Shown: positions 37,615-38,344 of the stretch, in pieces
Numbering within the stretch: position 1 is the first letter of the stretch
How the letters are laid out: each line of letters starts with the position of its first letter
NCBI GenBank assembly: GCA_016204805.1
Contig: JACQKA010000044.1
Span: 1-42,346 of the forward strand
Source: Candidatus Kaiserbacteria bacterium
GTDB taxonomy: Bacteria > Patescibacteriota > Minisyncoccia > Phycocordibacterales > UBA2100
Direction of reading: 5' to 3'
DNA: 42,346 nt
Notes under the pieces: generated by a model
The model's database searches: none
What the model saw: the letters and a program-made list of their open reading frames with translations, nothing else
What the model was told of the DNA's origin: nothing
Translations under genes and position numbers: made by a program

Positions 37615-37636
37615 TTTAATAATTTAGCTAAATTTT

Positions 37637-37981
37637 ATGACAGAATTTGTACCACAAAAGCGAGGAGGGAAGCAATATGCTGAAGTTTTGCGAGAAATGG
37701 AAAATTTACCGTCCATTCTTATGAGGATGTTAATAAGTGAGGGCATGGAGCAAGGTGAAGTTGCAGAAGAGGTAAGGAGAGAAGTCAATAACACACTCGA
37801 TAACTTCAAGATCAAGTTGAGAGAGCTTGATCAAAATAAATCCGCAGATCAGGAGGCGTTTCGAATTATTACGAATAATTTAGTAAGTGATATCTTGAGC
37901 TTTGGCGGGGTGCCTCATGCAAAAGTCGATCAAATCGTACGAAAGGCCATTAGAGAATGTTTTGCGCTTGACGAAAAATAA
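37637..37981 (+). CDS. Hypothetical protein (114 aa) inside the atp operon
   Basis: ORF with helical, charged composition. No family recognised. Its first 12 nt (ATGACAGAATTT, MTEF) are identical to the atpA start. Confidence 0.45.
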   Translation: MTEFVPQKRGGKQYAEVLREMENLPSILMRMLISEGMEQGEVAEEVRREVNNTLDNFKIKLRELDQNKSADQEAFRIITNNLVSDILSFGGVPHAKVDQIVRKAIRECFALDEK

Positions 37982-37987
37982 CAAAAC

Positions 37988-38038
37988 ATGAAAGGCACTA
38001 TCACACAAATAGTCGGACCGGTTGTGGATGCAAAATGA
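37988..38038 (+). pseudogene. Relic copy of the atpD 5' end (16 codons plus stop)
   Basis: [14 protein letters not shown] is identical to the atpD N-terminus. There are 5 differences in 42 nt, all synonymous third positions. The copy then diverges (AK) and stops at TGA. Confidence 0.75.
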
Positions 38039-38050
38039 ACGGGATATAAT
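38022..38050 (+). promoter_or_regulatory. Promoter TTGTGG-17-TATAAT, -10 box 6 nt before ATG 38057
   Basis: The -35 lies inside the atpD relic. tataat-gtgttt-ATG. Confidence 0.5.
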
Positions 38051-38056
38051 GTGTTT

Positions 38057-38344
38057 ATGGCCGCAAAAAGGGCAAGAAAACAGCGTACGGGGTTTGATGA
38101 GCTGAACGACAAGCTCGATCGAGTTATTGATGTAATAAGCGACATGGCGACCAAGGACGATATCGCGCGTCTTGATGCCAAGTTTGAACGCAAATTTAAC
38201 GGTGTGATGAATGCAATAGATGGGCTTACAAAAGCGGTGAGCGATTTAACGTTAGAGTACGCGGCAGTCAAAATGCAGCTTTCGCGGCACGAGGAACGAA
38301 TTCGTTTGCTTGAAGAAAGAGCAGGTGTTAAGTTGCCATCATGA
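38057..38344 (+). CDS. Hypothetical coiled-coil protein (95 aa) inside the atp operon
   Basis: [23 protein letters not shown]...[19 protein letters not shown]. The stop overlaps the atpD ATG (ATGA). Confidence 0.5.

Follow-up and report, generated by a model that had tools for sequence, protein, structure and literature searches.

A probable recombination joint in a variable slot of the ATP synthase operon of a Kaiserbacteria-like Patescibacterium

INTRODUCTION

Why are atpG and atpD, the genes for the gamma and beta subunits of F1 ATP synthase, held apart by two small open reading frames (ORFs) in a Candidatus Kaiserbacteria genome? We address this question for contig JACQKA010000044.1 of assembly GCA_016204805.1, positions 1 to 42,346 of the forward strand; this whole stretch of 42,346 nucleotides (nt) is called the window. 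A first-pass annotation of the window had read the two ORFs, here named ORF1 and ORF2, as a foreign mobile cassette. We conclude instead, with a probability of about 0.62, that in this Kaiserbacteria-like Patescibacterium the insert is a mosaic joint occupying a hypervariable slot of the atp operon, and that it arose by recombination between operon haplotypes and not by the action of a mobile element.

RESULTS

Relics of atp gene ends at the junction

The features of the junction are listed below; comparison loci from other genomes carry L numbers (L005 and so on).

36703-37614, + strand: atpG (F1 gamma; Pfam PF00231, E = 3.8e-85)
37615-37636, + strand: AT-rich spacer of 22 nt ahead of ORF1, read from the sequence and partly like the spacer after the L011 atpG relic
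37637-37981, + strand: ORF1, 114 amino acids (aa), a predicted all-alpha orphan and apparently variable cargo of the junction slot, matched only by itself
37637-37648, + strand: 12 nt ATGACAGAATTT at the ORF1 start, equal to the atpA start at 35126-35137
37988-38029, + strand: relic, the first 14 codons of a diverged atpD allele, forming a direct repeat with the true atpD start
38029-38038, + strand: TGCAAAATGA, at the joint; putatively what is left of the final codons and stop of an atpG allele
38045-38050, + strand: predicted TATAAT -10 box of leaderless type, 6 nt before the ORF2 ATG
38057-38344, + strand: ORF2, 95 aa, most likely a small MATKDD beta-layer coiled-coil protein (homologue family, synteny, selection)
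38144-38161, + strand: MATKDD codons, ORF2 residues 30-35, canonical beta-layer motif (profile matches to PDB 7O92 and 5APZ)
38341-39717, + strand: atpD (F1 beta), functional copy (Pfam PF00006, PF02874 and PF22919)

Between the two ORFs lies a direct repeat of the atpD start, for which a repeat finder pairs 37987-38028 with 38340-38381 (42 nt, 90% identity). The repeat opens a short reading frame of 16 codons (37988-38038, with its stop at 38038). It differs from the true atpD at 5 of 42 nt, all of them third positions; none of the 14 codons is changed in meaning, none of the 28 first and second positions is altered, and the longest exact stretch common to both copies is 20 nt. The fifth difference (GAT versus GAC) sits at the breakpoint. 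Where the atpD start of L005 is visible, it is identical to the relic (17/17 and 23/23 nt, including 4 nt upstream), and the window's functional atpD departs from both at GGA/ACA/(ACG)/CAG, the relic allele having GGC ACT .. ACA CAA. The first-pass annotation had counted the same five synonymous differences and proposed a diverged but functional atpD allele as the source of the relic; both points are borne out by these comparisons. It had also described the layout correctly: 726 nt separate atpG from atpD, ORF2 and atpD overlap in an ATGA that holds the stop of the one and the start of the other, and the insert is AT-rich (G+C 0.41-0.43, versus ~0.55 in the flanks). The G+C content at third codon positions (GC3) of ORF1 and ORF2 is 0.38 and 0.47, the two lowest values among 34 window genes, the remainder ranging from 0.53 to 0.68.

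Downstream, homology to atpD stops at ..GTTGTGGA, and the next nucleotides, TGCAAAATGA, place a stop 18 nt before the ORF2 ATG. The distance between the atpG stop and ORF2 is 17-19 nt in L011, L005 and L004, whose atpG genes end in ..GA/TGCGATAA, in TGCGGTAG and in TGAAATAA / TGCGCTGA, respectively. At 38028-38038, we infer, codon 14 of atpD has been joined to the final codons of an atpG allele.

Relics of this kind recur at other loci. A 21-nt copy of the atpG end, again with synonymous differences only, follows ORF2 in L004, and L011 (1073-1266) has two nested atpG 3' relics, a short one (~24 nt) directly after the ORF2 stop and then one of 129-131 nt. The longer relic holds the last 43 atpG codons (129 nt), with an intact reading frame for the last 42 gamma residues. 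It differs from the atpG of its own genome at 18 nt in 15 codons without a single nonsynonymous change, and is closer (88.5%) to the end of the window's atpG, which has the same 'type A' terminus (..GTCAGCGAGAT..); its only first- or second-position changes belong to a synonymous TCA/AGC serine switch. Because divergence in place, as noncoding DNA, would hit first and second positions, the relics must have diverged while still coding, in other genomes, and have become noncoding only recently.

The surrounding genes form a mosaic. Between the window and L005, synonymous divergence is 0.32 for atpA, 0.65 for atpG, 0.73 for ORF2 and 0.47 for atpD (0.28 at its 5' end), and the ranking of relatives changes from gene to gene: atpD is closest to L005 (95.6% protein identity), ORF2 to L011 and L004, and atpG to L011. 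The atpG genes of the window and L005 (943-1878) share 66% protein identity, with 0.23 nonsynonymous (pN) and 0.65 synonymous (pS) differences per site of each class, as against ~96% protein identity for atpA and atpD; the central part of atpG is the most divergent and its last 60 codons are conserved. By this pattern the gamma gene itself appears to be part of a recombining or hypervariable region.

The relic-ORF2-atpD joint is not a one-off assembly artefact, since two Logan contigs from separate runs, L172 and L173, reproduce the window at 100% identity (37984-39027 and 37804-38763). These independent assemblies span 37804-39027; the joint between atpG and ORF1 (37615-37803) lies outside that span. 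Contig L172 (Logan SRR12113383) begins exactly at 37984, where identity between the window and L005 ends on the left ('aaacATGAAAGGC'), and this start point hints at a second, co-existing haplotype in the sample with another left flank.

ORF2 is a resident gene of the clade

ORF2 has 26 homologues in a collection of 5.8 billion proteins, and its profile retrieves 708 representative clusters at E <= 1e-3 (135 at E <= 1e-10), so that the family comprises at least 708 clusters. Its named members come from Kaiserbacteria, Paceibacterota and Minisyncoccota. The first-pass annotation could assign neither ORF to a family; this holds for ORF1 and no longer for ORF2, which belongs to this Patescibacteria family.

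We looked up the genomic context of 11 distinct homologue loci, the window included. ORF2 lies in an atp locus in 8/11 of them, with the following orders: atpG-ORF2-relic-two membrane ORFs-atpD (L004); atpG-ORF2-ORF1 remnant-atpD (L005); atpG-136 aa-ORF2-atpD (L006-L009); atpG-120 aa-Ham1-ORF2-atpD (L010); atpG-ORF2-relics-gene X (L011); and atpG-117 aa membrane ORF-ORF2-atpD (L180). In L174, where atpD and atpC are split from the other atp genes, ORF2-atpD-atpC stands on its own with topA divergent upstream. The other 3/11 contexts lie outside atp operons: after alaS, after a DUF8173 gene, and stand-alone near pilin genes of a type IV secretion system (T4SS).

Against its three closest homologues (L011, L004 and L005), ORF2 has a pN of 0.10-0.15 and a pS of 0.7-0.85; across all copies, pS is saturated (0.71-0.94) and pN stays at 0.10-0.32. 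Because synonymous sites are saturated while pN is low, ORF2 is a genuine gene that has been under purifying selection and long at the locus. In each genome the ORF2 homologue has a lower G+C than its atpD neighbour, and GC3 is ~0.42-0.53 regardless of the GC3 of the host. Since the homologues are AT-richer than atpD everywhere, low G+C is a trait of the ORF2 family and no sign of recent arrival. These comparisons establish ORF2 as a resident, selected gene that in this clade normally stands immediately upstream of atpD, overlapping or nearly abutting it.

Its distribution is patchy, because 160 loci centred on atpG, from GTDB species (0/80 with ORF2) and metagenomes (0/80), do not carry it. 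Scanning GTDB and the metagenomes with atpG returned no relative above 65% atpG identity and none with ORF2. Exact-protein look-ups of ORF2 and atpC returned the same genome in two runs only, and among 2.9 million viral contigs there were no relatives of ORF2.

ORF1 looks like dispensable cargo

A search of the same 5.8 billion proteins with ORF1 returned only ORF1 itself. It has no significant match in Pfam, PHROGs, NCBIfam or PADLOC, no relation in pairwise comparison to any other junction cargo protein, to gene X of L011 or to ORF2, and a probability of 1% in hhalign against the profile of the L006/L013 junction-protein family. A single-sequence AlphaFold2 model gives a helical bundle (predicted local distance difference test score (pLDDT) 74.5, predicted template modelling score 0.61), for which a PDB fold search found generic helical bundles only (E > 0.2).

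The sole other trace of ORF1 is in L005, between ORF2 and atpD, where 20/20 nt match ORF1 at 37925-37944 and a weaker likeness extends further upstream. After this remnant come a 39-nt deletion and then 'aaacATGAAAGGCACTA', which equals window 37984-38000. Because the 3' remnant runs into the atpD start, ORF1 must have adjoined atpD in the L005 lineage, lying between that gene and ORF2. To judge by the remnant, ORF1 has decayed in that lineage, and it looks like dispensable cargo.

The first 12 nt of ORF1, ATGACAGAATTT, occur twice in the window, at the starts of ORF1 and atpA as the first-pass annotation had reported, and never in shuffled sequence. Around them (35125-35137 and 37636-37648) the two genes share TATGACAGAATTT, encoding MTEF, together with a loosely similar AT-rich stretch upstream. 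We dropped the idea that ORF1 copied a conserved atpA start, as the atpA N-termini of relatives differ and are not MTEF. The shared start could be another scar of recombination at gene starts.

The atpG-atpD junction as a variable slot

Patescibacteria relatives have between 14 and 1854 nt separating atpG from atpD; in Verrucomicrobia and Chloroflexi the gap is mostly 20-70 nt. Its cargo is unrelated from lineage to lineage: a nucleotidyltransferase/DUF86-like (toxin-antitoxin-like) pair, recognized by inspection only, with Ham1 in L013; four-helix-bundle proteins in L014 and L015; NUDIX in L016; small membrane proteins in L004, L023, L026, L031, L034, L036, L042 and L180; and helical orphans in L006, L010, L018, L025 and L033. 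Empty or nearly empty junctions, which the first-pass annotation had suggested looking for in relatives, do exist (L017, L021, L040 and L022). The junction thus tolerates very different cargo in different lineages.

In L006 (3880-4000) and L180 (720-826), the decayed 3' end of a NUDIX gene stands directly before the ORF2 ATG, with the same spacing as before atpD in L016. Whole genes seem to be gained or lost at microhomologies of the ATGA start codons. In L016 itself (5212-5341), the NUDIX gene ends in ..TGYNPFNL* and overlaps the atpD ATG, and its Tyr-Asn codons are a TATAAT. L010 (1580-2017) has a 145-aa ORF with no Pfam match between atpA and atpG; other atp junctions of the clade can therefore also hold extra genes.

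A recombination model for the joint

We propose that two operon haplotypes recombined, one with the order atpG-ORF1-atpD and an atpD start like that of L005, the other with the order atpG-ORF2-atpD. One crossover would have been illegitimate, joining codon 14 of the first haplotype's atpD, at a GA, to a piece of the second haplotype that comprised the last ~10 nt of atpG, the leader and ORF2. A second, homologous crossover would have fallen in a flanking atp gene. The outcome would be the present arrangement, in which the functional atpD is kept behind ORF2 and a 14-codon atpD stub is stranded behind ORF1. The process would be homology-facilitated illegitimate recombination (HFIR), probably after DNA uptake.

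HFIR has been proposed for the effector-immunity arrays of the Vibrio type VI secretion system (T6SS) and for Rhs orphan arrays (PMC5361080). Its products include displaced immunity-gene arrays in the T6SS clusters of Vibrio cholerae and orphan 3' arrays at Rhs and contact-dependent inhibition loci (PMC5361080). They resemble the junction in several ways: a conserved flank is the homologous anchor and the other end is joined illegitimately; new cargo comes to lie beside old, with fragments of conserved genes left as relics; and repeated events yield nested relics, as in L011. They differ in that the anchor here consists of essential ATP synthase genes and not toxin systems, that the cargo genes are small orphans without an evident role in conflict, and that the host is an uncultivated Patescibacterium, for which the mechanism is read from scars only.

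Several observations weigh against this model. No intact donor haplotype with the order atpG-ORF1-atpD was found; the data fit the transfer of either block, and they place the homologous crossover no more closely than in a flanking atp gene. The identification of TGCAAAATGA as an atpG end relies on 10 nt and the spacing, and the microhomology at the joint is only 2 nt (GA; atpD ..GTGGA/C versus atpG ..GCGA/TGC..). In the key comparator, L005 (GCA_964404835.1, CAYOLN010000032.1), a 10-N scaffold gap (2304-2313) interrupts the atpD start where 5 nt are expected, just where an assembler would fail on a duplicated atpD start; the local structure of L005 is thus uncertain, and a duplication could be concealed there. 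The uniformly low GC3 of ORF2 across hosts could also mean that ORF2 itself has been exchanged, and the nearest-lineage GTDB representatives have no ORF2 at the junction, which makes its residency patchy. The activity of the ORF2 promoter, described below, is predicted from sequence only.

Alternative explanations

Four alternatives of decreasing standing, and a fifth that can be set aside quickly, compete with haplotype recombination. In the first, the F1Fo ATP synthase would have a lineage-specific accessory or regulatory protein in ORF2, alone or together with ORF1, and its position would reflect function and not history. This reading is favoured by the 8/11 contexts directly upstream of atpD, among them the split operon of L174, by the tight coupling of ORF2 and atpD, by the purifying selection on ORF2 and, speculatively, by a probable trimeric coiled coil that could suit the threefold alpha3beta3 head. 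The homologues beside alaS, DUF8173 and T4SS pilin genes speak against it, as do the 160 atp loci without ORF2, the lack of similarity to epsilon, delta, IF1, zeta, AtpI and other known subunits, and the status of ORF1 as an orphan that has decayed in L005. We regard it as unlikely to explain the locus. The first-pass annotation had offered an accessory pair as its second option; ORF2 is indeed a lineage-specific neighbour of atpD, but there is no evidence that the pair acts on the enzyme, and the homologues outside atp operons count against that part.

A somewhat weaker contender is intragenomic: an ancestor with the order atpG-ORF2-ORF1-atpD, as still seen in L005 with its ORF1 remnant, would have tandemly duplicated the segment from the leader through ORF2 and ORF1 to atpD codons 1-14 and then lost the first ORF2 and the second ORF1. 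ORF1 could be deleted precisely through a CATGAA microhomology that the ORF2 end shares with the atpD start, and the scaffold gap at the L005 atpD start could hide the duplication. Three events are required, however, and an old noncoding relic should show changes at first and second positions, of which 0/28 are seen. The relic moreover equals the L005 allele and the functional copy differs, so that at least one replacement between lineages would still be needed. We consider such a history rather improbable.

Less probable still is that ORF2 on its own is a small self-propagating gene with gene boundaries as its insertion sites, the repeats of the window, L004 and L011 being its target-site duplications. 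Direct repeats of a neighbouring gene end do flank ORF2 in these three loci (42 nt; 21 nt; ~24 plus 131 nt), homologues occur in non-atp contexts, GC3 stays at the same low level whatever that of the host, and in L006 and L180 ORF2 sits exactly at the position of the L016 atpD start. The repeats, however, are of very unlike lengths, and their copies differ by 10-14% in a purely synonymous manner, which is unexpected for an insertion duplication; the window relic matches the allele of another lineage. ORF2 in the window has no stop of its own (ATGA overlap) and encodes no enzyme, L001 and L002 have no repeats flanking it, and synonymous saturation between neighbouring lineages points to long residence.

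The mobile two-gene cassette of the first-pass annotation, aimed at ATP synthase gene starts, is largely refuted, and we now hold it to be very improbable. In its favour are the low G+C and GC3 of both ORFs, the atpD-start relic, the 12-nt start common to ORF1 and atpA, and the relics of atp gene ends at other loci. The two ORFs do not travel together: they are never found side by side elsewhere, ORF1 exists intact nowhere else, and what remains of it in L005 is found downstream and not upstream of ORF2. ORF2 is anciently resident beside atpD, and the relic lies between the ORFs and does not flank them. Features of an element are absent as well. Neither ORF has a recombinase, transposase or integrase domain by Pfam, PHROGs, NCBIfam or PADLOC, both being small and predicted all-helical; no terminal inverted repeats bracket the insert; and there is no second copy within the window, nor a viral one. 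The repeats across loci (21, ~24, 42 and 131 nt, with copies 10-14% different and all differences synonymous) are not target-site duplications of fixed length, and no common unit recurs at several unrelated sites or mobile replicons, ORF2 alone being present at some non-atp sites without flanking repeats.

An assembly chimera at 37600-38340, which the first-pass annotation had named as a result that would refute its reading, is hardly credible: the atpD-start repeat could mislead an assembler, L172 begins exactly at 37984 and L005 has its scaffold gap at the homologous place, but two assemblies of other runs give 37804-39027 at 100% identity (the atpG-ORF1 joint, 37615-37803, lying outside), the longest exact stretch between the repeats is only 20 nt, and analogous relics occur in the independent datasets of L004 and L011.

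A leaderless-type promoter ahead of ORF2

Promoters of leaderless mRNAs have a -10 box (TAnnnT) ~6-7 nt before the start codon, and are known from Actinobacteria, Deinococcus and archaea. A TAnnnT hexamer ends shortly before the ORF2 ATG in 11/11 homologue loci, at 6 nt in 9 loci and at 11 nt in 2 (L006 and L180, where it lies within the NUDIX gene remnant). The window, L006, L010, L177 and L180 have a perfect TATAAT at this place. The same arrangement is common elsewhere in the window: a hexamer lies 5-7 nt before the candidate start of 20/50 putative genes, versus 3-4/50 in two controls, which suggests that leaderless transcripts are widespread in this genome. Ahead of atpC (39730-39744), a perfect TATAAT ends 6 nt before the ATG at 39742, inside the atpD 3' end. 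The ORF2 box thus has the spacing of known leaderless promoters, as do 9/11 homologue loci and ~40% of window genes, and differs from them in being a prediction from sequence and in the weakness of the proposed -35 element, TTGTGG, which matches the consensus at 3/6 positions.

The first-pass annotation had paired TTGTGG in the relic with this TATAAT and argued that the insertion created the promoter. The -10 box 6 nt before the ATG is upheld by its conservation, and the -35 element is not: a sigma-70 promoter scan did not call the TTGTGG-17-TATAAT site, and promoter-like matches in the region did not exceed those in shuffled sequence. Nor did the insertion create the promoter, as the TATAAT belongs to ORF2's own leader and is conserved in the homologues. 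From the predicted ORF2 promoter, a leaderless mRNA of ORF2-atpD-atpC is probably made as well.

Where ORF2 is absent (L012, L016 and L017), a TATAAT lies 9-11 nt ahead of atpD. Among GTDB relatives without ORF2 the closest is L012, whose atpG-atpD spacer (4990-5056) holds a perfect 14-bp stem-loop (GGAGAAAGTGAAAG / CTTTCACTTTCTCC); followed by the TATAAT 9 nt before atpD, the stem-loop looks like a terminator-promoter boundary inside the operon. We infer that the atpG-atpD junction is a boundary between transcription units in this clade, which would explain why the junction accepts insertions. Our literature search found nothing specific on leaderless mRNAs in bacteria of the candidate phyla radiation (CPR).

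The ORF2 protein and its possible function

ORF2 yields at most weak coiled-coil noise in Pfam, PHROGs, NCBIfam and PADLOC. AlphaFold2 models the monomer as a long helical hairpin (helices 12-30 and 33-89, with a break at M30-A31-T32; pLDDT 78), for which a PDB fold search returned 0 matches. A sequence-profile search of the PDB (alignment A1) matched 7O92 (E = 2.4e-5) and 5APZ (E = 7.4e-5), both GCN4-fusion constructs, in short, motif-driven alignments that run through MATKDDIA.L. The former is the Candidatus Giovannonibacteria hypothetical protein UY81_C0065G0003 and the latter Thermosinus Tcar0761. Trimeric coiled coils have been shown to form a beta-layer at the MATKDD motif, whose consensus is [aliphatic]-A-T-K-[polar]-[DE] (Hartmann et al., eLife 2016, PMC4786415).

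Residues 30-35 of ORF2 are exactly MATKDD; across the family T32 is invariant and D35 nearly so. Because of this exact motif and the matches to beta-layer constructs, ORF2 is most likely a short trimeric alpha/beta coiled coil, a trimer being the expected state. Like the alpha/beta coiled coils of Tcar0761 (5APZ) and 7O92 (PMC4786415), it has the motif followed by IA.L with predicted helices on either side, its family profile matches both PDB constructs (E = 2e-5 to 7e-5), and some family members have two or three tandem beta-layer units. Unlike them, it has only 95 aa, one beta-layer and a conserved C-terminal block of its own (LEYAAVK.QL.RHEEWI..LA.K.GVKL), and it matches neither Pfam DUF3782 nor DUF1640, from which the motif was described (E <= 1; none of the 26 family members at E <= 0.01). 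The N-terminus is basic. The window's copy has R at the nearly invariant W81 and is missing one heptad. Our search of the literature found no paper on the Giovannonibacteria construct.

Several ATP synthase regulators and assembly factors are encoded by small genes, among them mitochondrial IF1, the alphaproteobacterial zeta subunit, cyanobacterial AtpTheta, and AtpI/AtpZ. ORF2 is likewise small and predicted to be largely helical (IF1 is also a coiled-coil oligomer), and it is linked to F1 genes, as are AtpI/AtpZ, which are encoded in atp operons. It differs from these proteins in lacking sequence or profile similarity to them and in having homologues outside atp operons. Neither ORF matches a known ATP synthase subunit or regulator (delta/OSCP, epsilon, AtpI, IF1, zeta) in Pfam or NCBIfam, nor does either model match one in the PDB fold search. 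ORF2 may act on ATP synthase; synteny, including the split operon of L174, speaks for such a role, and the non-atp homologues and patchy distribution speak against it.

A bolder combined proposal is a long shot. In it, the ORF2 family would be a Patescibacteria-specific threefold alpha/beta coiled-coil rod that binds or regulates alpha3beta3 as an inhibitor, tether or assembly factor and heads a leaderless ORF2-atpD-atpC unit, and the nested synonymous relics would be footprints of frequent HFIR between co-existing CPR lineages.

Implications

Illegitimate recombination anchored in conserved flanks is a known mechanism. The new findings are modest but tangible: in the atp operon of a CPR clade, a slot for cargo that is prone to recombination and marked by purely synonymous relics, and an uncharacterized MATKDD family linked to atpD. 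We found no paper on genes between atpG and atpD in Patescibacteria, and the ORF2-atpD link is seemingly unreported. If haplotype recombination is the correct explanation, an essential and normally rigid operon (atpBEFHAGDC) has a gamma/beta boundary that, in a Patescibacteria clade, is prone to recombination and accepts cargo, and purely synonymous relics are datable footprints of DNA exchange between diverged, not-yet-cultured lineages. The family, of sizeable extent, would join the understood MATKDD beta-layer motif to a reproducible partner, atpD, and that link would be a testable hypothesis on CPR ATP synthase biology. Common leaderless-type promoters, whose -10 box precedes the ATG by 6 nt, would help to annotate gene starts in such metagenome-assembled genomes.

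Neighbouring features

Rfam and tRNA scans of the window reported two tRNAs only, both distant from the locus. Downstream of atpC, an RNHCP-domain gene is conserved in the window (41860-42141, per locus L183) and in L006 (6005-6295), L010 (7057-7359) and L180 (2859-3167).

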